Assembly: GCF_053078305.1 (NCBI RefSeq)
Contig: NZ_CP166879.1
Length of the DNA stretch: 64,000 nucleotides
Direction: 5' to 3' (one strand)
Shown: piece by piece, positions 2,748-46,392 of the stretch
How the letters are laid out: the number at the start of each line of letters is the position of its first letter
How positions within the stretch are numbered: position 1 is the first letter of the stretch
Made by a program: the position numbers and the translations under genes
Notes under the pieces: model-generated
What the model saw: the letters and a program-made list of their open reading frames with translations, nothing else
Database searches by the model: none
Told to the model about the DNA's origin: nothing

Positions 2748-3266
2748 TTACGCTTTGGCTTCTTTATGGGTTAAATTGAAATGATGCTCCTTGGTTTCAT
2801 CTCCCTCGAAAATCTCTCTAACCTTTTGATCTGATAAATTATTAAGGCTCAATGCTGCCAGGCGTCGAATACCTGTTAAAGCGATCAACTCTTGATTCTC
2901 TTGATTGCAGAATTCCAGCAATTTTTCTACCCCTTTCCTTCTCAAGGTGTAAATAACTAATTCTTGCTCTTCTTGGCTCAAAGTGTCGATGAGTTCGAGC
3001 AACTCGCTATTGCCACCGTTCTTTTGAGGGGGCTGGTGTTTTATTTCTGCACTACCTGTAATGATGGAAACAACATGTGCAGGTAAGTCGCTTAAACGGT
3101 AGGCAAATGCTCTCCCTCTGATACCAGGTGTAGTTACCGAACGTTTTTCCCATCCTTCATTTTTTGCTCGTTTATGAAGCCCAGCCAGAGATGAAGGAAG
3201 ACCTCCAACCCCCAACAAGTCACTGGCAAGGATCCATTCTTGGTCAAGGATCATATCAAACTCCAT
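2748..3266 (-). CDS. Mu c-like repressor
   Basis: Leftward 172 aa ORF at the left end; its N-terminal motif DLxGxGGLPSSLAGLHKRAKNEGW is shared with the transposase N-terminus (DLPSSLAGLHKKAKREAW), as in Mu c and A. Confidence 0.75.
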   Translation of the reverse strand: MEFDMILDQEWILASDLLGVGGLPSSLAGLHKRAKNEGWEKRSVTTPGIRGRAFAYRLSDLPAHVVSIITGSAEIKHQPPQKNGGNSELLELIDTLSQEEQELVIYTLRRKGVEKLLEFCNQENQELIALTGIRRLAALSLNNLSDQKVREIFEGDETKEHHFNLTHKEAKA

Positions 3267-3483: not shown

Positions 3484-3729
3484 GTGAGTCTTATTGAAGA
3501 TTGGTCTTCCGCCGATATAAAGGCAGCCTTAGAAAAACGCGATACCAATTTGTCACGTTTATCAAGGGAAAATAATTTGCAGCCTAGGACTTTGGGTAAT
3601 GCTTTGCGAGTTCCCTACCCTAAAGGTGAAAAGATAATTGCTAGGGCTATAGGTGTAGAGCCACAGGTTATTTGGCCTACTAGATATGAACGACGTGCGC
3701 GGAGGAAATATGTGGGTTGCAATGACTGA
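3484..3729 (+). CDS. ner: Ner-like DNA-binding regulator
   Basis: 81 aa ORF resembling recalled Mu Ner (…LSRLSR…TLGNAL…PKGEKIIA…EPQVIWPTRY), first rightward gene. Confidence 0.8.
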   Translation: MSLIEDWSSADIKAALEKRDTNLSRLSRENNLQPRTLGNALRVPYPKGEKIIARAIGVEPQVIWPTRYERRARRKYVGCND

Positions 3730-5794
3730 ATTGATTTCATTCAGTGACCTACCTAGTTCTTTGGCAGGTCTGCACAAAAAAGCAAAGAGGGAAGCGTGGA
3801 AAACGCGGCTAAAACCAGGGGTAAAAGGGAAAGTTTTAGAGTGTGAAATAGGAGCTTTGCCTTTAACTGTTCAGCAGGCAGTACGCGAACGCCATGCCCT
3901 GCAACTGATGACGCAAAAAGCCGATGAATCACCGGCTCCGGTGGTGACAAAGGCCAGACGCTCACCTGCCGTGGTTGATGCGGTGGAGGCATATCGCGGA
4001 TCACCCCAACTGATGGTCGAACGCCTCAATGCCCTGACTGAAAATCAGCGCCAGGTGGCTGATGCACGAATCGCGATCGTCAGCGAAGTTCTGAAAGTCG
4101 CGCAACAACCTGGTTTCAGCTGTGCGAAGGCTATCCGGTTTATCGTTGACAACCTGGCACGTTCGCAGTTGGACGAGCGCATTGTGGCAATGGTTGAGAC
4201 GGCGAACGCCAAAAAGGGAAACAGCCGCGCGTTAAGTGAAATCACGCTGAAACGCTGGATTGCGGCCTTTAACAAGGCGCAGAACGCCGCTGAACGCCTG
4301 CTTTTACTGGCACCGGGTAAGCGCCAGGAAATAAAAGCCGAAGATATTAACTGGCTGCCCGAATTTCTGGCGCAGTATCGCCAGTCAAACGGCCGACCAA
4401 TGACCGAGGCTTACGAGGATTTTGTCGCTGAATGGCAGCACCGGCACGCCGATGAGCCTTATATGCTCGATATCATGCCGTCTTATGACACCATTCGCCG
4501 CGCAATGAAGAAACTGCCGGAAGTGGTGAAACAAAAAGGCCGGGTGACCGGCAGTGAATACCGCCAGCTTGAGGGATTCACGCGCCGCGACTGGTCAAAA
4601 ATGCCGGTGAATTATGTCTGGATTGGTGACGGTCACGGCATGAAGCTGAAATGCGCACACCCGGTTCACGGTCGGCCATTTGCACCGGAAGTGACCTTTG
4701 TTATCGACGGTGGCACGCGCTTTGTGGTGGGCTGGAGCCTTGACCTGGCTGAAAATGTTTTCGCCGTAGCCGGTGCCATACAGCACGGCATTCGCCATCA
4801 CGGCAAACCGTTTCTGTATTACTCGGATAACGGCTCCGGGGAAACCGCCGACATCCTGGATAAGGAGGTTGTGGGGATACTGCCGCGACTGGGGATTAAT
4901 CACCCGACCGGGATTGCCGGTAATCCGCAGGGACGAGGCATTATCGAACGGCTTAACCGCACATTACCGATGCGCATAGCCCGTAAATACCGCACCTATT
5001 TCGGGAAAGGTGCAGATCGCGAGACGTTACGCAAAACCAACCGCGATTTACGCTCGGCATTTACTGCCCTGCAACAGGGCAAACGGCTGAACGCCCGGCA
5101 GCAGTCAGCGATGCGTGATTTACCGTCCTGGTCTGAACTGATTGATGCCATTCGTGACGGTGTTGAGTGGTACAACAACCGGCCGCACGATGAATTACCG
5201 GTGAAGCCGAACGGCAAGCATTACAGCCCGGCGGAGTTCAGAAAAAAACGCCTGGCGGAAGAGGACACGGAAATTGAATGGCTGTCCGATGTTGAGCTGC
5301 GGGATATGTTCCGGCCGATGGTGGAACGCCCTGTAAGACGCTGTGAAATACGCTGGCTGAATAATATTTACTACGCGCCCGAGCTGCGTGACGAGCATGG
5401 TCGTAAGGTGCTTATCAGCTATGACATTCATGATGCCGAACGAATTACCGTACGTCGCCTGGATGGCAGCGTGATTTGCGAGGCGGTATGGGACGGTAAT
5501 AAACGCGAAGCCTTCCCGGTTAGCGCGGAATACTACAAACAGCAGCAACGCCTTAAAGGCATGCGTAAACGCGCAGAGGAAAAAATCCGTGATGCCGAGG
5601 ATGAGGTTGTCAACGTGCTGGAGCACAAGCCGCAGGAGCCCTGGCTGGAAAACATATACCGCCCTGTGGGTAATACGGTGACCGTTCAGCAACCGGTCGC
5701 TGACGATGAACCTGATGAAGAATACGAGCGTAATTTCCAGCGGGGATTGCAGTTGCTGGAAGCGAAATTAAAAGAAAATGACCCGCTGGCCTGA
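3710..5794 (+). CDS. Mu-type DDE transposase A
   Basis: ~700 aa ORF with repressor-like N-terminal DNA-binding domain; GGAGG at 3701-3705 favours the ATG at 3710 over the in-frame ATG at 3686. Confidence 0.85.
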   Translation: MWVAMTELISFSDLPSSLAGLHKKAKREAWKTRLKPGVKGKVLECEIGALPLTVQQAVRERHALQLMTQKADESPAPVVTKARRSPAVVDAVEAYRGSPQLMVERLNALTENQRQVADARIAIVSEVLKVAQQPGFSCAKAIRFIVDNLARSQLDERIVAMVETANAKKGNSRALSEITLKRWIAAFNKAQNAAERLLLLAPGKRQEIKAEDINWLPEFLAQYRQSNGRPMTEAYEDFVAEWQHRHADEPYMLDIMPSYDTIRRAMKKLPEVVKQKGRVTGSEYRQLEGFTRRDWSKMPVNYVWIGDGHGMKLKCAHPVHGRPFAPEVTFVIDGGTRFVVGWSLDLAENVFAVAGAIQHGIRHHGKPFLYYSDNGSGETADILDKEVVGILPRLGINHPTGIAGNPQGRGIIERLNRTLPMRIARKYRTYFGKGADRETLRKTNRDLRSAFTALQQGKRLNARQQSAMRDLPSWSELIDAIRDGVEWYNNRPHDELPVKPNGKHYSPAEFRKKRLAEEDTEIEWLSDVELRDMFRPMVERPVRRCEIRWLNNIYYAPELRDEHGRKVLISYDIHDAERITVRRLDGSVICEAVWDGNKREAFPVSAEYYKQQQRLKGMRKRAEEKIRDAEDEVVNVLEHKPQEPWLENIYRPVGNTVTVQQPVADDEPDEEYERNFQRGLQLLEAKLKENDPLA

Positions 5795-11672: not shown

Positions 11673-11958
11673 TTCGCAGTTGTTCTGGTGTTTATATATC
11701 ACATCGTTTTTCGGTGCATTCGTCATTACACGATGGCTGTGCCGGAAAGTTATCAGTATTTTTCATAAAAAATACCTGATTGGGCTGGCGGCGACTTCTC
11801 TGATTAATGCACTTGCCAGATATCATAAGGGGGAATACTACTCAAGAATAAAAACTGATGATGGTTTTAATATTTTTGTGATTCCTCCGGAGTATCGGGT
11901 TCAGCTCGATCGGGAAAGTAATATCTATCATATCAGCAGGAGTGTTGATACAGCATGA
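11662..11958 (+). CDS. hypothetical membrane-anchored protein
   Basis: 98 aa with N-terminal hydrophobic segment; overlaps neighbours. Confidence 0.4.
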   Translation: MDSSSQLFWCLYITSFFGAFVITRWLCRKVISIFHKKYLIGLAATSLINALARYHKGEYYSRIKTDDGFNIFVIPPEYRVQLDRESNIYHISRSVDTA

Positions 11959-12464
11959 GAGGGAAACTGATATCCGCTATTCATGTGGCAAAGCGCGAGC
12001 TTGCCCTGGATGATGAGACCTACACATTCGTACTACTGGCAGCCACCGGCAAAACCAGTTGCCGGGATATGTCACCGGATGAGTTATCCCGCGTGCTGGA
12101 TGTTTTCAAAAAACGCGGTTTTAAAGTGCGTCAGAAACCGGTTAACCGGGCCTTAAAACCGGGTACGGTGACCGCCAAAATTCGCGCCATCTGGAAAGTG
12201 ATGCACTGGCAGGGCTTTATCTCTGATGGTGCGGAAACCGCTCTTAACCGCTGGGTGAAATCGCAGACGGCCGCGCAGAACGGCGGCGAAGGTGTGGCAA
12301 ACTGGCAGTGGCTGGAGCAACACCCCGCCCTGGCCTCAGATGTGCTGGAGCGTCTCAAGCGATGGCACCGCCGCAAAATGCTGGCCGCGATGGGAATGCC
12401 CGAACGCACGCTGATGGGGTATGACGCCGTTTGCAGGCAGTATGAAAAATCACTTCCCCGTTAA
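11955..12464 (+). CDS. GemA-like (Mu gp16-like) protein
   Basis: 169 aa; N-terminus …LISAIHVAKRELALDDETY… resembles the Mu gp16/GemA family as I recall it; sits just upstream of the Mor/C activator. Confidence 0.55.
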   Translation: MRGKLISAIHVAKRELALDDETYTFVLLAATGKTSCRDMSPDELSRVLDVFKKRGFKVRQKPVNRALKPGTVTAKIRAIWKVMHWQGFISDGAETALNRWVKSQTAAQNGGEGVANWQWLEQHPALASDVLERLKRWHRRKMLAAMGMPERTLMGYDAVCRQYEKSLPR

Positions 12465-12533: not shown

Positions 12534-12959
12534 ATGGCAGAAACTCAGATGAGCATGTTTGGTGGTGACAGTGAGCAACTGCACGCCCTTATCGACCGCC
12601 TTGATGACATCCCTGATGATGTTCTCAAAAAGAACTGGCCGCGTACCCTGTCTGAACTGGTTGAAGTCACCGGCGCAGAACTTCAGCGTCAGGGGATTGA
12701 GCCGGTACTGGCCGGTAAACTGGCACGCAAGGTGGCTGCGGCTCAGGCCGCCTATATGGGCGGACGGGGTTATTACCTGCCGGTCGGGGAATCTCTCTTT
12801 GCCGAGCTGCGAAACAATGAGATATTTTCGCGCTGGGACCGGGGCGAGAAAATTGAATCCCTTCGCCGCCATTACCGGATGTCAGAAACCCAGATTTATA
12901 CCGTCATACGTGAACAGCGCCGTCTGCATCTGGCAAGAACACAACCGCCACTTTTCTGA
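12534..12959 (+). CDS. Mor/C-family transcriptional activator
   Basis: 141 aa with C-terminal HTH and pattern …GGRGYYLPVG…ETQIYTVIREQRR similar to recalled Mu Mor. Confidence 0.7.
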   Translation: MAETQMSMFGGDSEQLHALIDRLDDIPDDVLKKNWPRTLSELVEVTGAELQRQGIEPVLAGKLARKVAAAQAAYMGGRGYYLPVGESLFAELRNNEIFSRWDRGEKIESLRRHYRMSETQIYTVIREQRRLHLARTQPPLF

Positions 12960-13030
12960 TATTCCGCAAAGCCTGCCGCCTTTCCTTCACCGTTACGCTG
13001 ACTCAGAGAACATCATGAGACAGCGTAACA

Positions 13031-13531
13031 ATGCCAAAACTCCCCGCACCACTGCGTAAAAAGCTGATTGCCCTTGTTCTGGCCGGTGCCGGGACGTTCA
13101 CGATTGCCACGCATTACACCGGTTACTGGGAAGGGAAAGAAAACTCCACGTATATCGATCCCACCGGTACACCCACCATCTGTTACGGCCATACCGGCCC
13201 GGATGTGAAACCGGGTATGACCCTGACGGATGAAGAATGCCTGGAACTACTGGAAAAGGACATGAAATGGGCCTTTGCGGCCATTGATCGGCGTGTTCAG
13301 GTGCCGCTTACCCGTGGTCAGACGGTGGCGCTGGCTTCGTGGATCTTCTGGGCCGGTGAAACGAACTTTCGCAACTCCACGCTTCTGCGCCTGATCAATG
13401 CCGGGCAGATGCCCGCGTCCTGTAAGCAGTATATCCGCTGGATTTATTCAAAGGGGGTGAAGCTCCCCGGCCTTGAGGCCCGCCGTTCGGCGGATGAATG
13501 GTTATGTCGCTACGATTTGCCGAAAGTCTGA
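13031..13531 (+). CDS. SAR-type endolysin (phage lysozyme)
   Basis: 166 aa with N-terminal hydrophobic anchor and lysozyme motif GYWEG…TICYGHT. Confidence 0.8.
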   Translation: MPKLPAPLRKKLIALVLAGAGTFTIATHYTGYWEGKENSTYIDPTGTPTICYGHTGPDVKPGMTLTDEECLELLEKDMKWAFAAIDRRVQVPLTRGQTVALASWIFWAGETNFRNSTLLRLINAGQMPASCKQYIRWIYSKGVKLPGLEARRSADEWLCRYDLPKV

Positions 13532-19106: not shown

Positions 19107-20415
19107 TTTAGGTTATGCCGCCACGCTTCCCTCAAAAGAGGCGGTGGCATACTTCCGCGCCAAAGGGGCGCATATCAGCTGGAACTGGTTCGAAACAGAC
19201 GCGGATGTTCATGCCCGTTCATTCACGGCGGCAAAAGTGGCACGCCTGGACGTACTGACCACACTACAGGCGGAAGTGCAGCGTGCTGTTGATGAGGGGA
19301 TTTCACAGAAAGCATTTATCCGCACACTGACACCCCGCCTGCAAAAGCTGGGATGGTGGGGAAAGCAGATTGTGGTGGACAGTGCCGGTAACGCGGAAGA
19401 AGTGCAGCTGGGCAGCCCCCGCCGTCTGGCGCTGATTTACAACGTGAACACCCGCGTGGCTTACAATGCCGGGCGTTACACGCAGATGATGAACAACACG
19501 GACACGCATCCGTTCTGGCAGTATGTAGCGGTGATGGACAGCCGCACCCGCCCGGCGCATTCCGCCCTTAACGGGCTGGTATTCCGCTATGACGATCCGT
19601 TCTGGAATACACACTACCCACCCAATGGCTGGAACTGCCGCTGCCGTGTCCGGCCATTGTCTCAGGCCCGTCTGGATGCAATGGGGTTATCCGTTTCATC
19701 CGGTCAGGATCATCTTTCCACCCGCAATGTTGAGGCTGGCGTGGATAAGCAGACCGGAGAAGTCAGAGAAATGCCGGTGACCACATATTCAGATGGCACC
19801 AGAACCATGACACCGGATGTGGGCTGGTCATATAACCCCGGTTCGGCGGCGTTCGGCACAGACCAGGCGCTGATCCGCAAGCTGATCGAAGTGAAAAGCC
19901 CGGCGTTACGGGAAATGGTGGTTCAGGAGATGAACAACAGCCCGGAGCGGCAGCTGGCGTTCCGCATCTGGGCAAAAAACATCATGAAAACCCGGCGAGG
20001 CGGTAACGATATCCGCACGCTGGGCTTTATGACCGAAAGTATTGCGCAGGCGGTGGAAAGCCGGACGGGAACGCCACCGGCCCGCCTGCTGGCGATGAGC
20101 GGTAAAAATGTGCTCCATGCGGACAGCGTGAAACATCAGAATGACGGTATCGCCCTGACGCCGGAGGATTTCGCGCAGCTTCCCGCCATGCTGGCTTCCC
20201 CCGATGCCGTGCTGTGGGATCATGTCCATCAGAACCTGCTTTACATCACTGAAACCCGTGACGGAACGGCAAAGATTGCCGTCAATGCGCCTTATGGTGT
20301 GAAGCGCCAGCCGGATAAGCTGGATGTGGTAATTAATGCTTACCGGGTAAATAAATTTGATATTGAAAAAGCAATAGAGGGCGGAAAGCTGGAACTACTG
20401 GAAGGTAAATTGTAA
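19090..20415 (+). CDS. Mu F-like head morphogenesis protein
   Basis: 441 aa ORF in the expected position after portal. Confidence 0.75.
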   Translation: MAQGIDLGYAATLPSKEAVAYFRAKGAHISWNWFETDADVHARSFTAAKVARLDVLTTLQAEVQRAVDEGISQKAFIRTLTPRLQKLGWWGKQIVVDSAGNAEEVQLGSPRRLALIYNVNTRVAYNAGRYTQMMNNTDTHPFWQYVAVMDSRTRPAHSALNGLVFRYDDPFWNTHYPPNGWNCRCRVRPLSQARLDAMGLSVSSGQDHLSTRNVEAGVDKQTGEVREMPVTTYSDGTRTMTPDVGWSYNPGSAAFGTDQALIRKLIEVKSPALREMVVQEMNNSPERQLAFRIWAKNIMKTRRGGNDIRTLGFMTESIAQAVESRTGTPPARLLAMSGKNVLHADSVKHQNDGIALTPEDFAQLPAMLASPDAVLWDHVHQNLLYITETRDGTAKIAVNAPYGVKRQPDKLDVVINAYRVNKFDIEKAIEGGKLELLEGKL

Positions 20416-20495
20416 GCCGGTGACGGGGGTCGAACCCGCATAAACATATGACCCCTGAGGGTTTATGCCGCTTTACCAGTTAAGAGTACACCGGC
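20416..20495 (-). ncRNA. tRNA-like element (acceptor stem and T-arm recognisable; anticodon arm not resolved)
   Basis: Minus strand reads GCCGGTG…GCGGG-TTCGACC-CCCGT-CACCGGC: 7 bp acceptor stem and GGTTCGA-type T-loop; an internal 8 bp helix GCATAAAC/GTTTATGC encloses CCTCAGGGG. No encoded CCA. Confidence 0.3.
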
Positions 20496-21007: not shown

Positions 21008-21183
21008 TTGTTTAAGGTATGCAAATGCATTACCTTACCCCCTTCAGGCGCGTGTCGTGATTTTCTAACCTGTATTTAACGGGCTTTAAAATCTGCGTGA
21101 AGCGCCTTTGTATTTTTCCCCTGGAAGCACTTCCTGAAATCCCGCAAAACCCGCCCTGAAAATTCCCGGCTTATGCTGCCGGA

Positions 21184-36603: not shown

Positions 36604-37164
36604 ATGCTGATTGGCTATATACGCGTATCAACAAATGACCAGAACACAGGTTTACAAAGAAATGCGCTGGAATGTGCAGGATGTAAGCTGATTTTTGAAG
36701 ATAAAATGAGCGGAAAAACAACGCAGCGGCCGGGACTGAAGCGGGCACTGAAGAAACTAAAACCCGGTGACACGCTGATGGTCTGGAAACTGGACAGGCT
36801 GGGGCGCAGTATGCGCCACCTTGTTGCGCTGACAGATGAATTACAGCAACAGGGGATAAATTTTCGTAGTCTTACTGACAACATTGATACGTCAACCCCC
36901 ATGGGGCGCTTCTTTTTTCACATAATGGGTGCGCTGGCAGAAATGGAGCGTGAATTGATTGTCGAACGGACACGGGCTGGTCTTGCAGCTGCCCGTGAAA
37001 GGGGACGAACCGGTGGCAGACCCCGTCGTCTCACGCAGGAACAATACGAGCAGGTCGGGCGTTTACTGGCCGGGGGTGTCAGCCGAAGACAGGTGGCACT
37101 TATTTTTGATATCGGCCTTTCAACCCTTTATCGTTATTATCCTGCAAGCATTTCGGAAAAATAA
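36604..37164 (+). CDS. gin: Gin/Hin/Pin-family serine DNA invertase
   Basis: 186 aa starting MLIGYIRVSTNDQ… with resolvase catalytic domain and C-terminal HTH, adjacent to the inverted repeats. Confidence 0.9.
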   Translation: MLIGYIRVSTNDQNTGLQRNALECAGCKLIFEDKMSGKTTQRPGLKRALKKLKPGDTLMVWKLDRLGRSMRHLVALTDELQQQGINFRSLTDNIDTSTPMGRFFFHIMGALAEMERELIVERTRAGLAAARERGRTGGRPRRLTQEQYEQVGRLLAGGVSRRQVALIFDIGLSTLYRYYPASISEK

Positions 37165-37254: not shown

Positions 37255-39312
37255 ATGAATATTATGACGTCCAAATGGGTTCAACTATCATCAATGCCCG
37301 GAAACTTTACCGTTAAAGTTTCCGGTGGTACAGCGGCATTTCTTGAGGCTCCTTTTCCTCCGGCTGAAACGAAAGGAGGAATGACATTTGCTGACTGTCT
37401 CATCAGTTTTAATACACAGGATTGCCTGTGGGTAAGGCCAGTATCCGGTGATCCGAACGTGGAAATTACCGGAGCGGGTATTGGTGCTGTCATTCCGTTA
37501 AGTGCTGATGTTGCCGGTACTACTGAACCGTCAGACTGGGATAATGCTGAAACACATACCCGTCCGGCAGGAAATGAAACGGCTTCCAGCTCCCCTTCCT
37601 GGTATTACGTGATTGTTATAGCCGGTCAGTCCAATGCTTCATCTTATGGTGAAGGGTTGCCCCTGCCGGATTCTTATGATCGTCCTGATCCACGTATTAT
37701 GCAGCTGGCACGCAGGAATACACAAACCCCCGGAGGTATTCCCTGCAAATACAATGAAATCATTCCAGCAGATCACTGCCTTCATGATGTTCAGAATATG
37801 AGTCTGCTGAACCATCCAAAAGCAGACCTGAAAAAAGGGCAGTATGGTTGTGTGGGTCAGGGACTTCATATTGCGAAAAAAGTATTACCGGTGATTCCTG
37901 CTGATGCCGGGATTTTACTGGTTCCCTGTGCCCGTGGCGGCTCTGCTTTTACAACCGGCGCAGTTGGCTCATTCGATCCGGCAAGTGGTGCAGCCGAGGC
38001 GTCACTACGCTGGGGAGTGGATACCCCACTGTATCAGGATCTTGTCAGTCGAACGAAAGCGGCACTTGAGGCGAATCCAAAGAATGTGCTGTTATCTGTC
38101 GTATGGATTCAGGGGGAAGGAGACCTTAAAGCGACCCCGGCCCAGCATGGTGCCCAGTTTACTGCGATGGTGAAAAAATTCCGTGCGGATCTTGGTGCTT
38201 TCTCCGGTCAGTGTATTGGTGGTTCATCAGACAGTGTGCCGTGGTTATGTGGTGACACAACCTATGACTGGAAAGAGAAGAACCCGGCGGCATATGAAAC
38301 CATTTATAGCGGATATAAAAACCGGGCTTCCGAGAACATTCACTTTGTTCCACTGATGCACGATGAGTTCGGTAATAAAACCGCGACCAACCTGCCGGAG
38401 CACGACCCGGATATCGCTTCTGCCGGGTATTATGGTGCGGAATCACGGGGAGATGGCAACTGGACAACAGCATCCAGGGCAACCCATTTTAGCTCCTGGG
38501 CGCGCCGTTTTCTGGTCTCAGATCGTTTTGCATCAGCAATTCTTAAATATGCAGGTCTGACCTCTGCATTTATTGCCGGTGTGGCCCCTGATGGTGAAGC
38601 CCTGCCTCAGCCCGCGCCGGGTGGAAAACCGGAAGCTCCGACAGGTAGTCAGCCAGGAAGCAGTGAGTCCCCCCAGCCGACATCCCCGTCACTCCGTACG
38701 CTGCTTTCACTTAAAGCATCAGCAGGGGAAGCCCCGGCTCAGGGATGGAAAATTACAGATGGTACAATCCAGCTGACGGACGAAGGTAAAGCGCTGACCG
38801 TATCCAAACAAAGCGGAAAAACCTGGTCACTTACCCATGCGACCAGTGCTGCCGGAGAGCTGTTGCAGCATGGTGGTCAGTTGACCTGTAAATTCCGTCT
38901 GTCAGGTGAAGTAAAAGAAGGCCAGTTTGCTCTGGGTATTTACCTCCACACCGATACGGTCCCGGAAGGTGTAACCATGAGTGGTACAGGCACACCGTTC
39001 CTGATGGCGTATTATCTCCAGACAACAGGCGGCCAGTTAAATCTGATGCACCATAAAACAGGGGGGAATACGAAACTGGGATCATTTGGAGCCTACAATA
39101 ACCAGTGGCATACACTTGTCCTGAAGTTTACGGCGGGAAGTGCCCAGGTAACGCCTGTGCTGGATGGCACTCCGGGCCAGGCATTCCAGATGGTGAAAGA
39201 TGCACTTTCCCCTGCCAAAGATACGCTGACACTGACAGATGTCACCAAAGGGGCAACTTATGGCGTGTCTTTTGAGAGCGTTGTCCTTGAGGTTAATACC
39301 CCTGCGGCATAA
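37255..39312 (+). CDS. NanS-like SGNH esterase (putative 9-O-acetyl sialic acid esterase) with C-terminal extension
   Basis: 685 aa; residues ~115-430 closely resemble recalled E. coli NanS/YjhS (YYVIVIAGQSNASSYGEGLPLPDS…DTPLYQDLVSRTKAAL…CGDTT…DRF); ~250 aa extra C-terminal domain. Confidence 0.7.
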   Translation: MNIMTSKWVQLSSMPGNFTVKVSGGTAAFLEAPFPPAETKGGMTFADCLISFNTQDCLWVRPVSGDPNVEITGAGIGAVIPLSADVAGTTEPSDWDNAETHTRPAGNETASSSPSWYYVIVIAGQSNASSYGEGLPLPDSYDRPDPRIMQLARRNTQTPGGIPCKYNEIIPADHCLHDVQNMSLLNHPKADLKKGQYGCVGQGLHIAKKVLPVIPADAGILLVPCARGGSAFTTGAVGSFDPASGAAEASLRWGVDTPLYQDLVSRTKAALEANPKNVLLSVVWIQGEGDLKATPAQHGAQFTAMVKKFRADLGAFSGQCIGGSSDSVPWLCGDTTYDWKEKNPAAYETIYSGYKNRASENIHFVPLMHDEFGNKTATNLPEHDPDIASAGYYGAESRGDGNWTTASRATHFSSWARRFLVSDRFASAILKYAGLTSAFIAGVAPDGEALPQPAPGGKPEAPTGSQPGSSESPQPTSPSLRTLLSLKASAGEAPAQGWKITDGTIQLTDEGKALTVSKQSGKTWSLTHATSAAGELLQHGGQLTCKFRLSGEVKEGQFALGIYLHTDTVPEGVTMSGTGTPFLMAYYLQTTGGQLNLMHHKTGGNTKLGSFGAYNNQWHTLVLKFTAGSAQVTPVLDGTPGQAFQMVKDALSPAKDTLTLTDVTKGATYGVSFESVVLEVNTPAA

Positions 39313-39584
39313 TCGTGACGGCCGGGAATTTATCCGGCTGTAACATCAGTTAATAAGAGTGAGGCTTATATGACATATATAAACGTCTGCCTGCTGTATT
39401 TCTGCACGGTGGTTTGTTGTCTGTTGCTTGTCAGCGGTGGTTATAAAATTATTCGCAATTATTTTCGAAATAAAATTGATGCAGCTGCCGAGGAAAAGAT
39501 AAAAAGCGGTGCTGTAATGCCGCAGCCGAAAGACTCCGGTCAGATTTAATTTTTTGTGAACCAGAAAAGGAAAGGAGAATATTC

Positions 39585-39830
39585 ATGCCAGAGATTAAAG
39601 GCACGGTTACTGAAGAGCTTGTCAAACAGGCACTTTATTCTGAAGAAGTGAACCGCGTGCTGAAGGCGCAGGTTCGCAAGGATTTTGAGGCACAAATCGA
39701 CGCATATGTTGATGAAGTGCTGGCCCGAATGGTTGGCCATTCTCCGGCTGAAAACAGCACGGAGAATGAGCCTCAGCCCGTAGAGCAACCAGAGCCGGTT
39801 CAGCCCGGAACTGACAGTGCCATGATGTAA
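39585..39830 (+). CDS. hypothetical small acidic protein
   Basis: 81 aa ORF with strong SD AAAGGAAAGGAG upstream. Confidence 0.4.
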   Translation: MPEIKGTVTEELVKQALYSEEVNRVLKAQVRKDFEAQIDAYVDEVLARMVGHSPAENSTENEPQPVEQPEPVQPGTDSAMM

Positions 39831-39904
39831 CAATACAAACCGACAGCTTCTCCTGTCGGTTTGATTTTCATGGGCGATGTATATACCAGTCAGAGGAAAT
39901 AATC

Positions 39905-40105
39905 ATGGACAAGAACAAAAAGCAGCCCGATACCAAAGGTCTGGAAATATTAAGCGCAGAAATTATCAATGCGCTACGTTCAGGACTTGATGAAAATACA
40001 TTACAGGATCGAAACTTCACCACTGCAATGTGGATAGCGATGCAGATCCTGTGTACCCCAAGATGCGCTATTTTTGCGGTTCGTGAGGGTCAGTTGACTC
40101 GCTGA
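39905..40105 (+). CDS. hypothetical small protein
   Basis: 66 aa ORF, weak support. Confidence 0.3.
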   Translation: MDKNKKQPDTKGLEILSAEIINALRSGLDENTLQDRNFTTAMWIAMQILCTPRCAIFAVREGQLTR

Positions 40106-40298
40106 TTGCCCGAATTACATCAGAAAAGCACGCGTTCCATAATTGCATAGCTGATGAATCACCAGCTGTATGAAAAGAGGTAAAGACACAACTGGTGGAT
40201 GTCATTGCTGCAATTGTGATATCAGCTGCAATTCGCGCAGCCTGTAACTTTTGGTCGGTGGTCAGTTTATCCATTTTCTCCTGCCTGAACAGATGCAT
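40068..40298 (-). CDS. hypothetical small protein
   Basis: 76 aa ORF on the opposite strand overlapping the previous ORF; only one of the two is likely real. Confidence 0.25.
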   Translation of the reverse strand: MHLFRQEKMDKLTTDQKLQAARIAADITIAAMTSTSCVFTSFHTAGDSSAMQLWNACFSDVIRAISESTDPHEPQK

Positions 40299-40529
40299 CT
40301 CTGCTTTACAGGAGGCCGGGGAATATCATAGGATACACCACGAGCTCAGAGTGAAGCATTGATGCAGTTTTTTACAGATTGACCCAGAATAGTTCGCGCT
40401 ATCTGAGTCGCCATTTATGTAGTCCCGAAGTAAAGCATTGATGCAAACTTGTCTAAATCGGCCCAGCATAGTTCCAGCTATGCTGGGTTTCCCTTTTATG
40501 TAGTATCCTGTTGATTTGAAACATACTAC

Positions 40530-40760
40530 ATATACGCGCGATCCTACCTTCACTGGATAAAAAGTCAATAAAATGATCATTTTATGATCGTTTTCACCAC
40601 CTAACTCTTCGTTTTCTTTAAGTAAATAATCACCGCCCTGAATCATTGTTGATGACTTTTCAATCTATTTGTTGTATCAATTAAACAAATCGAATCGATC
40701 GTTTTTGTCGATCGATTGCATGAGAAAGGCATCAACAACAAAGCAGGAGGTTATGCGGCC
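40530..40760. promoter_or_regulatory. putative mom operon control region with clustered Dam (GATC) sites
   Basis: GATC at 40540, 40575, 40586, 40697 and 40710 within ~180 bp upstream of com; Dam-regulated mom promoter in Mu is established knowledge. Confidence 0.45.
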
Positions 40761-40961
40761 ATGTATCGAAACATACGGTGCCGACACTGCAATAAGCTAC
40801 TGGCACGGGCCAGTTTCAGTTATCTGGAAGTAAAATGTCCGCGCTGTAAAACCCTCAATCAAATCACATCTCCGAGCGCCACAGAGCACCCCACATACAC
40901 AAGGAAATCCTGTCGTGGGGAACAGAAAGCAAGTCACATCCCGTATCATCAGCACGCCTGA
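40761..40961 (+). CDS. com: Com-like zinc-finger translational activator
   Basis: 66 aa from the ATG at 40761: [14 protein letters not shown]…[10 protein letters not shown], two CxxC pairs as in Mu Com; 3' end overlaps the mom start. Confidence 0.7.
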
Positions 40962-41652
40962 ACTTATTCGCTATAACGACAATATCGTTGGTTATGGTTC
41001 CCGTGAGTTGCGGGTTGAGACAATAAGTTGCTGGCTGGCCAGACTGGTTATCGTCAATAAACATTACAGCCACCGTTTCGTAAATAACTCCTACCTTCAT
41101 CTGGGCATATTTTCAGAACGGGAACTTGTTGGCGTAATGCAATGGGGTTACGCCCTTAACCCAAACAGTGGTGCACGCGTCGTAACGGGTACGCAGAACC
41201 GAGAATATATGGAGCTGAACCGGCTATGGATGCATGACTGTATGCCGAGAAACTCCGAATCAAGGGCAATCAGTTACGCGCTCAAGCTAATCAGGCAGCT
41301 TTATCCGCAGGTACAGTGGGTTCAGTCGTTTGCAGATGAGCGTTGTGGCTGTCTTGGTGTCGTGTATCAGGCAAGCAATTTTGATTATGTAGGCAGCCAT
41401 GAAACAATATTCTATGAACTTGATGGCGAGTGGTATCACGAGATTTGCAGGAATGCCATTAAACGAGGCGGACAACGAGGTGAACATCTGAGGGCTAATA
41501 TCGACAGAGCCAGTGTGCATAAGTTCCGACAGTTTCGTTACATCCGGTTTCTGAACAAGAGGGCCAGAAAACGCCTCAACACAAAGCTATTCAAAGTCCA
41601 GCCTTACCCAAAACCACAAACAGTTAAAACTGGTTTGAAAGAGAGTGAATGA
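40915..41652 (+). CDS. mom: Mom-like DNA modification protein
   Basis: 245 aa ORF (GTG start) overlapping com and located at the right phage end, the Mu com/mom arrangement; function by position and architecture. Confidence 0.6.
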
Positions 41653-41710
41653 GCGCTTAAAAACTCATTCTAAAACTCAAAAGAAAAGCGCCGATTTAGT
41701 ATCAAATAAG

Positions 41711-41764
41711 TTGCGTATCGGCGTTTTTCAGCGGTATCAAATGAAATGCAAATCGGTATCAAAA
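41711..41764. repeat. right-end transposase-binding repeats (attR-like)
   Basis: CGTATCGG (41714-41721), GCGGTATCAAA (41731-41741), TCGGTATCAAA (41753-41763), inverted relative to the left-end copies. Confidence 0.6.
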
Positions 41765-43030
41765 AAATCGCCGCGCTATACCCACCAGACTCATTCCTGC
41801 CCAGCCTACAGGACTCAGGTTACCGTAAAGAATGACCGCCAATATTGCCAGTCCACCCCATTGCAAAAAAGTATCAGGCCGGTAAAACGAAGACTTTTTA
41901 CGCGGCAGATAAAATTTCTGCATCCGTAAAAATGCCCTGCGTAAGACTCTGTTGCGTCTCCCCGTAAGAACGACCTTATCGCCTTTACGAAATAACGCTT
42001 CCAGTAATAACTGCTCTGCGGGCAGTAATACCTCATTATTTCTGGTCGCGCCTTCATTAACACGAATCAGGATTTGCTGGTTCTTATCATACTGATCTTC
42101 CAGATGAATTTTTCCTTTCACAATCAGATTTACGATATCGGCACAAAACCCTTTATCGTCGTAAACCAGCTTCGCATCGAGACGTAACATGCCGGGCGTG
42201 TAATCTGGCGGAATGACATCGGTTTCAATCACATCTACCGGCGTAAATTGCGGCCTGCGCTTCCAGAGATATAACCATCCACAAACCAGGAATAGACACG
42301 GAAACCAAATTAACAACGATGACGTGGAGGGTAAAAGAAGATGGCTGAAAATATTCGTCGTTTGTGGAGCCGGGGCATTGCTAAGTAACGAGTGAGGCCA
42401 ACGGTAGAGGACCGTGAAATCTTCACGATAAAACGGATCGCTGGATTCAATTCTTCCGTCCTCAAGGATGCGGCCATTTCGATATGTGTCGCCCTCTTCT
42501 CCAGTAAAGAGATCGATTTCGCTAAATGGATTACCCGCGATATCAGGGAACTTGAGTGAAAATCGGGTCTTATAGATTTCAAACGGCCAGTGGTTACCAG
42601 TCACGTTCCAGATTAACAGATCTGAATCTCCCTCACGCAGGAAAGCATTTTTAACCTGATAATGAATTTGATAATGATAGTCGCCTTGGGGCAAGAAACG
42701 TTGTTTATCGCCCACGACAATACTCATTAACCCGATATGCCAGTCAAGATGCCAGGGTTCAGGAATACCATCACGGGTTACGCCAACAATATGATAGTTC
42801 AGCAGTGCTGCGTCCCCATCAGGCTGCATCCAGAGTCGTGGTAAATCACGATAAAATCCGTGCTTAATCTGCTGATTTCGCGCCTGAAAATGAATGTTCT
42901 CTTTGATGTCGAGCACCCCATCCGGTTGCAGAGTGGCTTCAGAAGGGATCTCCGTGTTTTCTGCATAACTTAGAGATGATACAAACAGCCCTGCTATCAA
43001 CAGCAAAATGCAGCGAAACTTCCCTGCCAT
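41759..43030 (-). pseudogene. yciQ: yciQ 5' fragment (N-terminal part), truncated by the prophage; stop codon formed at the junction
   Basis: 423 aa ORF with signal peptide whose TGA (41759-41761) lies inside the phage terminal motif. Confidence 0.75.
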
Positions 43031-44829: not shown

Positions 44830-46392
44830 ATGCAAACACAAAAACCGACTCTCGAACTGCTAACCTGCGAAGGCGCTTATCGCGACAATCCCACCGCGCT
44901 TTTTCACCAATTGTGTGGGGATCGTCCGGCAACGCTGCTGCTGGAATCCGCAGATATCGACAGCAAAGATGATTTAAAAAGCCTGCTGCTGGTAGACAGT
45001 GCGCTGCGCATTACAGCTTTAGGTGACACTGTCACAATCCAGTCCCTTTCCGGCAACGGCGAAGCCCTGCTGACACTACTGGATAACGCCCTGCCTGCGG
45101 GTGTGGAAAATGAACAATTACCAAACTGCCGTGTGCTGCGCTTCCCCCCTGTTAGTCCACTGCTGGATGAAGACGCTCGCTTATGCTCCCTTTCGGTTTT
45201 TGACGCTTTCCGCTTATTGCAGAATCTGTTGAATGTACCGAAGGAAGAACGAGAAGCCATGTTTTTCGGCGGCCTGTTCTCTTATGACCTTGTGGCGGGG
45301 TTTGAAGATTTACCGCAACTGTCAGCGGAAAATAACTGCCCTGATTTCTGTTTTTATCTCGCTGAAACTCTGATGGTGATTGACCATCAGAAAAAAAGCA
45401 CCCGCATTCAGGCCAGCCTGTTTGCTCCGAATGAAGAAGAAAAACAACGTCTCACTGCTCGCCTGAACGATCTTCGCCAGCAACTGACCGAAGCCGCGCC
45501 GCCGCTGCCGGTGGTTTCCGTGCCGCATATGCGTTGTGAATGTAATCAAAGTGATGACGAGTTCGGTGGCGTAGTGCGTTTGTTGCAAAAAGCGATTCGC
45601 GCCGGAGAAATTTTCCAGGTCGTGCCATCTCGCCGTTTCTCGCTGCCCTGCCCGTCACCGCTGGCGGCCTATTACGTGCTGAAAAAGAGTAATCCCAGCC
45701 CGTACATGTTTTTTATGCAGGATAATGATTTCACCCTGTTTGGCGCGTCGCCGGAAAGTTCGCTCAAGTATGACGCCACCAGCCGCCAGATTGAGATCTA
45801 CCCGATTGCCGGAACACGTCCACGCGGTCGTCGTGCCGATGGTTCACTGGACAGAGACCTCGACAGCCGCATCGAACTGGAAATGCGTACCGATCATAAA
45901 GAGCTTTCTGAACATCTGATGCTGGTGGATCTCGCCCGTAATGATCTGGCACGCATTTGCACCCCCGGCAGCCGCTACGTCGCCGATCTTACCAAAGTTG
46001 ACCGTTACTCTTACGTGATGCACCTGGTCTCCCGCGTGGTCGGTGAGCTGCGCCACGATCTCGACGCCCTACACGCTTACCGCGCCTGTATGAATATGGG
46101 TACGTTAAGCGGTGCGCCGAAAGCACGCGCTATGCAGTTAATTGCCGAGGCTGAAGGTCGTCGCCGCGGCAGCTACGGCGGCGCGGTAGGTTATTTCACC
46201 GCGCATGGCGATCTCGACACCTGCATTGTGATCCGCTCGGCGCTGGTGGAAAACGGTATCGCCACCGTGCAAGCCGGTGCTGGCGTAGTCCTTGATTCTG
46301 TTCCGCAGTCGGAAGCCGACGAAACCCGTAATAAAGCCCGCGCTGTACTGCGCGCTATTGCCACCGCGCATCATGCACAGGAGACTTTCTGA
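44830..46392 (+). CDS. trpE: anthranilate synthase component I
   Basis: 520 aa, matches recalled TrpE. Confidence 0.95.

Follow-up and report, generated by a model that had tools for sequence, protein, structure and literature searches.

In phage Mu, expression of the DNA modification gene mom is under the control of Dam, OxyR, C and Com (PMC3378877), and OxyR binds the GATC region when this region is unmethylated, according to references 12-14 as cited in that paper. Com is described in the experimental literature as an RNA-binding translational activator, which binds a small hairpin adjoining a translation-inhibition structure whose stem includes the mom GUG, and GAG(N)2CC was obtained as the core for Com binding by systematic evolution of ligands by exponential enrichment (SELEX) (PMC6483171). 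Mom takes glycine from Gly-tRNA(Gly) and produces N6-carbamoylmethyl-dA on double-stranded DNA (PMC13219725). Homologues of Mom and its regulators are encoded by prophage Sp18 of Escherichia coli O157:H7 Sakai (PMC3299994). A com-mom pair of this type was identified in a stretch of 64,000 nucleotides from contig NZ_CP166879.1 (assembly GCF_053078305.1), here called the window, which is a piece of E. coli chromosome with an Sp18-type Mu-like prophage. The pair is very probably a functional Mu-type com-mom operon formed by the last genes of the prophage, with translation gated by Com and transcription probably gated by Dam and OxyR through two GATC sites at 40697 and 40710.

Identity of com and mom

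The mom gene (40915..41652, plus strand) encodes a predicted adenine-modifying enzyme of 245 aa with a GNAT fold, and its GTG is the first possible start downstream of an in-frame stop. The identity of the protein was established directly. It matched the Pfam Mom family (PF25680) with 259.2 bits (E=3.2e-77, cut-off 27.1 bits), residues 31-233 covering profile positions 1-202 of 202, and it matched PHROG 1384 at 8.6e-84. Identity was 79% to Mu Mom and 76% to D108 Mom, and the solved structure PDB 8BV8 was matched over chain residues 4-232 with E=2.1e-123. The homology to Mom, which the initial annotation had left for a formal search to decide, is thus clear.

The initial annotation had also asked for the residues of the acetyltransferase fold, and all those described as essential or important are kept. 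In a structure-function study of 2026, R111, S124 and R151 of Mom were essential and D149 was strongly required, H58, Y59, W48, Y159 and W181 were important for activity, and a helix-turn-helix (HTH)-like insertion at about residues 175-209 was indispensable (PMC13219725). With the offset to the numbering of that study allowed for in the alignment, the identical counterparts in the 245-aa protein were R103, S116, R143, D141, H50, Y51, W40, Y151 and W173, respectively; Y28 of the study was likewise conserved, and the HTH-like insertion aligned without gaps to Mu Mom and 8BV8. By homology, this Mom would use Gly-tRNA(Gly) as the donor of a glycine that is attached to adenine N6 in the double-stranded DNA of the phage, and the product would rearrange to N6-carbamoylmethyl-adenine, which would block many restriction enzymes. 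The anti-restriction function assigned at the outset is supported in this way.

The com gene (40761..40961, plus strand) encodes a predicted zinc-ribbon translational activator of 66 aa, and its ATG lies 10 nt past a ribosome-binding site AGGAGG (40745..40750, plus strand, read from the sequence), which is identical in the comparison loci L023-L025, L028, L030 and L031. The com start agrees with the RefSeq annotation in relatives. Com matched Pfam Zn_ribbon_Com (2e-12, 46.8 bits, cut-off 22.9 bits) and the PHROG 'gpCom control of modification' (5e-13), while a sequence search of PDB with Com gave no match. It is 46% identical to Mu Com, with the invariant zinc cysteines C7, C10, C26 and C29 corresponding to C6, C9, C26 and C29 of Mu. 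Com homologues (L002, L023-L025, L028) are called 'Com family DNA-binding transcriptional regulator' by RefSeq.

The overlap of a Com-type zinc-finger open reading frame (ORF) with the start of the Mom-like ORF, as initially described, was found exactly as such, with a length of 47 nt here and 50 nt in Mu. The two genes are the rightmost pair of the prophage, in agreement with the right-end placement first proposed, with 128 bp between the end of mom and the prophage end, as in Mu. Mu and D108 share with this locus the same two proteins, the mom GUG inside com, the Com target, the inhibition hairpin, the last-gene position and the pair of GATC sites II/III followed by GATCGATT. Com of the window exceeds its Mu counterpart in length by 4 aa, and the extra residues of Mom relative to Mu are a 2-aa insertion in the N-terminal part and a 12-aa extension at the C-terminus.

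Predicted Com target and hairpin in the 3' end of com

The two RNA elements expected of a Com system are kept in the 3' end of com, a GAGCACCCCAC motif standing beside a CCCCAC/GUGGGG stem. The predicted Com target GCCACAGAGCACCCCAC (40878..40894, plus strand) aligned with that of Mu (GCCUGCGAGCAUCCCAC) and with those of L007, L016 and L005, and it includes the SELEX core GAG(N)2CC. The translation-inhibition hairpin (40889..40920, plus strand) is formed by pairing of CCCCAC (40889-94) with GUGGGG (40915-20), and encloses both the Shine-Dalgarno (SD) sequence AAGGA of mom (40901-05) and the GUG start. The same stem appeared in the predicted minimum free energy folds of the window, Mu, L007, L016, L005 (Edwardsiella) and L023-25 (E. 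coli variants). Its outermost pair is U-A in Mu, L007 and L016 and C-G in the window, L005 and L023, and both changes are synonymous third-position changes, for His in com and for Gly in mom. The difference was regarded as a genuine compensatory change, though of a single pair. A scan of 39000-42000 against Rfam gave nothing meaningful.

With this arrangement, the SD and GUG start of mom would be buried in the hairpin inside the 3' end of com, and Com produced from the same mRNA would be expected to bind the adjacent GAGCACCCC motif and open it.

Com, the Com target and the hairpin (window 40761-40930) were found in identical form in locus L023 (E. coli AST198, 1634-2840), a close relative in which the hairpin GUG starts not mom but a gene for a C5-cytosine DNA methylase (Pfam PF00145, 1.6e-42); the two sequences are joined about four codons into the modification gene. 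Because identical com and hairpin are paired with a C5 methylase there, they may serve as a portable translational gate for different DNA-modification enzymes. In the com-linked methyltransferases Hin1523 of FluMu, Nma1821 of Pnm1 and ORF48 of B3, com and a downstream control element likewise front a DNA-modification gene, whereas the cargo behind com in the window is Mom itself and not a DNA methyltransferase.

Probable Dam and OxyR sites and candidate promoters

Five GATC sites before com, within about 180 bp, had been pointed out by the initial annotation. They are present at 40540, 40575, 40586, 40697 and 40710, five in 174 bp (40540-40713), with no other site in 40049-40539 or 40714-42093. 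The clustering itself was rejected as significant, since with 237 GATC sites in the window at least one group of five within 174 bp appeared in 52% of the trials of random placement (window-wide P about 0.5); a second group of five lies in host genes at 45892-46057.

The non-random feature is the pair of proximal sites. They lie in the perfect palindrome AATCGATCG-N7-CGATCGATT (40693..40717), which occurs once in the window and is invariant in all E. coli variants fetched, and they are the only GATC pair in the window spaced exactly 13 bp. Mu (L003) has three GATC sites upstream of Pmom, at 3247, 3265 and 3278, with spacings of 18 and 13, and 40697/40710 aligned to 3265/3278 (sites II/III), having in common with them the 13-bp distance and the GATCGATT that comes next. 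Conservation of the 13-bp pair extends to 10 loci of at least 5 genera, its position and spacing being kept in Mu, D108 and the com-mom loci of Edwardsiella, Pantoea, Sodalis and other Enterobacteriaceae. A triplet spaced 18-19 and 13 exists in Mu, D108, L007, L016, Pantoea L017 and Sodalis L020, a 31 and 13 arrangement in Edwardsiella L005, and the pair alone in the window and its E. coli relatives. Mom homologues of about 70% identity in Serratia and Yersinia (L009, L012-L015) have neither a Com-type CxxC...CxxC ORF nor, upstream, GATC sites paired at 13 bp. Thus the Dam pair and com travel together without being universal partners of mom. The palindrome was also considered as a binding site of the phage late activator, which was rejected, for it is unique in the window and the late promoters of lys and the protease gene have another box in common.

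The OxyR consensus was enriched around the same pair. An array of half-sites (40645, 40667, 40676, 40685 and 40698) extends over 40645..40712, and the GATC-pair palindrome fits the half-site geometry ATAG-N7-CTAT, reading ATCG-N7-CGAT here. The best full OxyR-consensus score of the whole window, 14/20, belongs to position 40645, and of the six sites in the window scoring 13, three are at 40663, 40667 and 40676. In dinucleotide shuffles of the local 131 bp, the probability of a best score of at least 14 was 0.0013, and four sites of at least 13 were obtained in none of 3000. The Mu region with its three GATC sites, which is reported to be bound by OxyR, scores 13 on the same scale, the second half-site being the II/III pair; the positions of the OxyR and C sites in Mu follow the Mu sequence annotation and secondary citations.

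Two GATC sites at a distance of 13 bp within a single OxyR half-site are also a property of P22 gtr and agn43, where OxyR sites overlapping or adjoining the core promoter are repressor sites, and for P22 gtr such a pair suffices for methylation-sensitive OxyR binding (PMC2909390). In contrast to this locus, gtr and agn43 have two alternative OxyR sites and act as heritable switches for phase variation of surface genes; no second pair of GATC-bearing half-sites was evident in the window, and nothing there showed bistability. From the consensus enrichment and the conserved GATC pair we infer that OxyR would bind at 40645-40712. Transcription of mom would probably be gated by host Dam and OxyR through the palindromic pair 40697/40710 in this array, and unmethylated DNA would bind OxyR, so that the module stays silent. 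Of the five upstream sites initially named as Dam sites, two have comparative support as Mu-type Dam/OxyR sites, and the other three lie in a separable upstream segment.

These three distal sites (40540, 40575 and 40586; 40540..40589) have no counterpart in Mu. Three GATC within 50 bp also occur at three other places in the window, and the mosaic segment in which they lie (40497-40628) is found in Sp18-type variants but is lacking in two related com cassettes, L023 and L024. No specific evidence points to a function of these sites in mom control, and they are probably incidental. They are covered by a minus-strand ORF (40326..40646) matching phrog_26524 over its first 77 residues. The version in relatives is annotated as a pseudogene, and in O157:H7 it has 154 aa with a C-terminal CPAC...CPAC. 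The ORF was not taken as established coding sequence, because ORFs of this type have only close relatives of variable length (84 to 154 aa) and a covarying hairpin lies within it. With the status of the gene doubtful, the idea that the distal GATC sites are mere coding sequence of a divergent gene was not relied on.

The hairpin in question, followed by a T-run, resembles an intrinsic terminator (40460..40499, plus strand, z about -3), its arms covary in L029/L030, and it would insulate com-mom from rightward transcription from upstream. The segment 40326-40505 is rearranged here relative to the O157 version, with a 79-bp duplication. On the plus strand of 40305-40505, a promoter-like TTTACA, 18 bp, TAGGAT stands before a unit of about 85 nt, which terminates in a 13-bp hairpin with a U-run; the unit is duplicated (40350-40425 and 40429-40505, 75% identical), had no match in Rfam, and is a candidate small RNA or insulating terminator.

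Three promoters for com-mom could be proposed in the plus strand. Candidate A (40705..40735; TTGTCG, 19 bp, CATCAA) has a predicted start near 40742 and about an even chance of being the right one. It lies in the core common to all variants, and its -10 (40730-40735) reads TATCAT in L023/L025; the 19-bp spacer has no T-run. If candidate A is correct, the distance from -10 to the com ATG is 25 nt, similar to the 27 in Mu, and the GATC pair falls at about -45/-32, compared with -46/-33 for GATC3/4 of P22 gtr (PMC2909390). Candidate B (40596..40624; ACCACC, 17 bp, TAAGTA, with a T-run before it) is 134 nt from com, has the three distal GATC just upstream, and resembles Pmom of Mu (ACCACA, 19 bp, TAAGAT) and of L007; as its ACCACC is the most variable spot among the variants and its segment is absent in L023 and L024, it is an unlikely com-mom promoter. 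Candidate C (40652..40680; ATGACT, 17 bp, TATCAA), overlapping sequence that in Mu belongs to the OxyR region, is a quite improbable one. An inverted repeat (40637-59/40725-47) that might sequester the com SD was dropped since it is not conserved in L024.

The spacing downstream of the GATC pair sets this locus apart from Mu. The last GATC is 51 bp from the com ATG in the window and 54 bp in Edwardsiella, and 76-81 bp in Mu (78), L007, L016 and L017. The segment missing here corresponds to the C-activator box of Mu (CAATAACCAC), the T6 run and the TAAGAT -10, none of which could be aligned to the window, and site I is also absent. Because the activator box and site I are missing, the statement that control is as in Mu can be transferred only in part, the GATC pair being what is kept. 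Unlike in Mu, the Dam/OxyR element would abut or overlap the core promoter directly, with no C-activator box between them.

The four late promoters of Mu share the box CCATAACCCC about 20 bp upstream of -10. A late-promoter signature of the prophage itself, CCGCAAARCC-N20-TAYGCT, was found in perfect form upstream of the lysozyme gene (12964) and the protease gene (21142), the two copies consisting of ATYCCGCAAARCCYGCC, about 20 bp and TAYGCT (12961-12999; 21139-21177) and being related to the Mu CCATAACCCC box. The candidate trans-activator is a late activator of the Mor/C family (12534..12959, plus strand; Pfam Mor 2.8e-32), which has 39% identity with Mu C and 27% with Mu Mor. Mu has two activators of this family, Mor and C, with middle genes between them, whereas the prophage has one, between gemA and lysozyme, which suggests that its regulatory cascade is shorter. 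The late-promoter box is also present in inverted form, as CCGCATAACC (40749..40758, minus strand), between the com SD and ATG, and no suitable -10 follows it on the minus strand.

Several observations weigh against the proposed control of com-mom. The fold energy of the translation-inhibition hairpin is no better than that of shuffled sequences (z -0.4), so the support for the hairpin comes from conservation and not from thermodynamics. Mu site I, 18 bp upstream of the pair, is missing, and the nearest upstream GATC (40586) is 111 bp off. The -10 CATCAA of candidate A is weak in this copy, and a simple sigma-70 scan of 40340-40760 gave no rightward promoter, with A, B and C all failing. Neither the Mu-type late-promoter box nor that of the prophage was found on the plus strand upstream of com, which leaves the late activation of com-mom unexplained. 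In the distal region, conservation among the E. coli variants is uninformative because of their closeness (95-100%). The position of the promoter and a late timing of com-mom are put forward here as predictions.

In a more Mu-like architecture, the Pmom-like element at 40596-40624 would be the real promoter and GATC 40540/40575/40586 would stand for the three sites of Mu; the proximal pair would then lie in a leader of about 127 nt, in which OxyR would be a roadblock like that at agn43, and all five sites would be regulatory. The T-run and TAAGTA closely resemble the sequence around the -10 of Pmom in L007 and Mu, ACCAC corresponds to the 3' half of the C-box at Mu Pmom with a similar spacing, three GATC are immediately upstream, 40497-40640 is nearly invariant among Sp18-type variants, and the covering minus-strand ORF is doubtful as a gene. 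But L023/L024 lack the segment and keep com and a modification gene, ACCACC is the spot that varies most and L025 has a changed TAAGTA, the GATC sites are spaced 35/11 and not 18/13, the phage's own late-promoter box is not present, and three GATC within 50 bp are common by chance, so that this architecture seems unlikely. Still less credit was given to GATC sites without any regulatory role, with a plain weak promoter or read-through and Com alone gating Mom. The chance-level five-site cluster, the lack of a recognisable activator box or strong promoter, and the Serratia and Yersinia mom loci without the pair would agree with it, whereas the conservation of the 13-bp pair in context and spacing across genera, specifically in com-bearing loci, and the significant enrichment of the OxyR consensus would not. 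Read-through is further disfavoured by the terminator-like hairpin upstream, and Com, being co-transcribed with mom, cannot set the timing alone.

Defective prophages are numerous in E. coli, and in relatives the neighbouring element 40268-40646 carries a pseudogene annotation, so the module might be taken for an inactive relic of a defective prophage. This seems very improbable indeed, as both ORFs are intact with all essential residues, the regulatory RNA elements are kept with a compensatory change, the transposase, lysis, head and tail genes and both ends of the prophage are retained, and Sp18 has been described as apparently intact (PMC2669165). A further, rather doubtful idea is that mom was rewired in the Sp18 lineage: the C-box would have been lost, an OxyR/Dam gate on the core promoter (GATC at about -45/-32) would for the most part have taken the place of the late cascade, possibly with bistability in lysogens, and com with its hairpin would act as a portable gate before Mom or a C5 methylase. 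The functional operon with Com-gated translation and a probable Dam/OxyR gate at 40697/40710 thus stays the preferred explanation.

The Sp18-type prophage and the meaning of the module

The prophage occupies 2443-41780 (39,338 bp) and interrupts yciQ (DUF2207). When 2243-2442 was joined to 41785-41984, an uninterrupted yciQ was rebuilt with 399 of 400 matches (99.8% identity). A 4-bp target duplication, CCCA, is at 2439-2442 and 41781-41784, and an independent insertion annotated in LC727881 also has 4 bp; the target duplication of Mu is 5 bp. The sequences of three independent insertions agree as far as ...GCGCTATA at 41780, and the left end is TGTAACC.... Repeats of GGTATCAAA, resembling transposase sites, are present in the right end (41653..41780).

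In the left part of the prophage are a repressor (2748-3266) and a MuA-like transposase (3686-5794), followed by GemA (11955-12464), lysozyme (13031-13531), head and tail genes, and a gin-type invertase (36604-37164). In Mu gin abuts Pmom, whereas about 3.5 kb of cargo are placed between the invertase and com here; this cargo (37255-40298) includes a 685-aa SASA-esterase/DUF6645 protein, DUF1378, DUF826 and small ORFs on both strands. At about 20407-20494 on the minus strand, a T-arm-like GGGTTCGACCCCC was noticed where a relative has a RefSeq 'tRNA-OTHER' at the equivalent place, between head-morphogenesis and virion-morphogenesis genes; ARAGORN found no tRNA in the window.

Of 5,426 complete E. 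coli genomes, 232 carried the com-mom region at 95-99% identity, and many of these are O157:H7 or other Shiga toxin-producing E. coli (STEC). The module is intact in over 200 E. coli genomes, where RefSeq labels the two genes as 'protein mom' or 'Mom family adenine methylcarbamoylation protein' and as a 'Com family' regulator. The window prophage belongs to the same family as Sp18, with com-mom 96-99% identical in O157:H7 and other STEC, and it differs from Sp18 in its insertion in yciQ and in the rearranged element upstream of com.

The module is an ordinary one of an already known type in a known prophage family, with a modest regulatory variant upstream, and in itself it adds nothing new to what is known from Mu. 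Its control region, which has no activator box yet has the Dam/OxyR pair, is a natural variant for finding which parts of the elaborate control of Mu mom can be dispensed with. Through hypermodification of the Mom type, a transposable phage becomes able to evade many restriction systems; because of this, and because such prophages are common in STEC, an active mom would widen the host range of Sp18-type phages and of the DNA mobilised by them.

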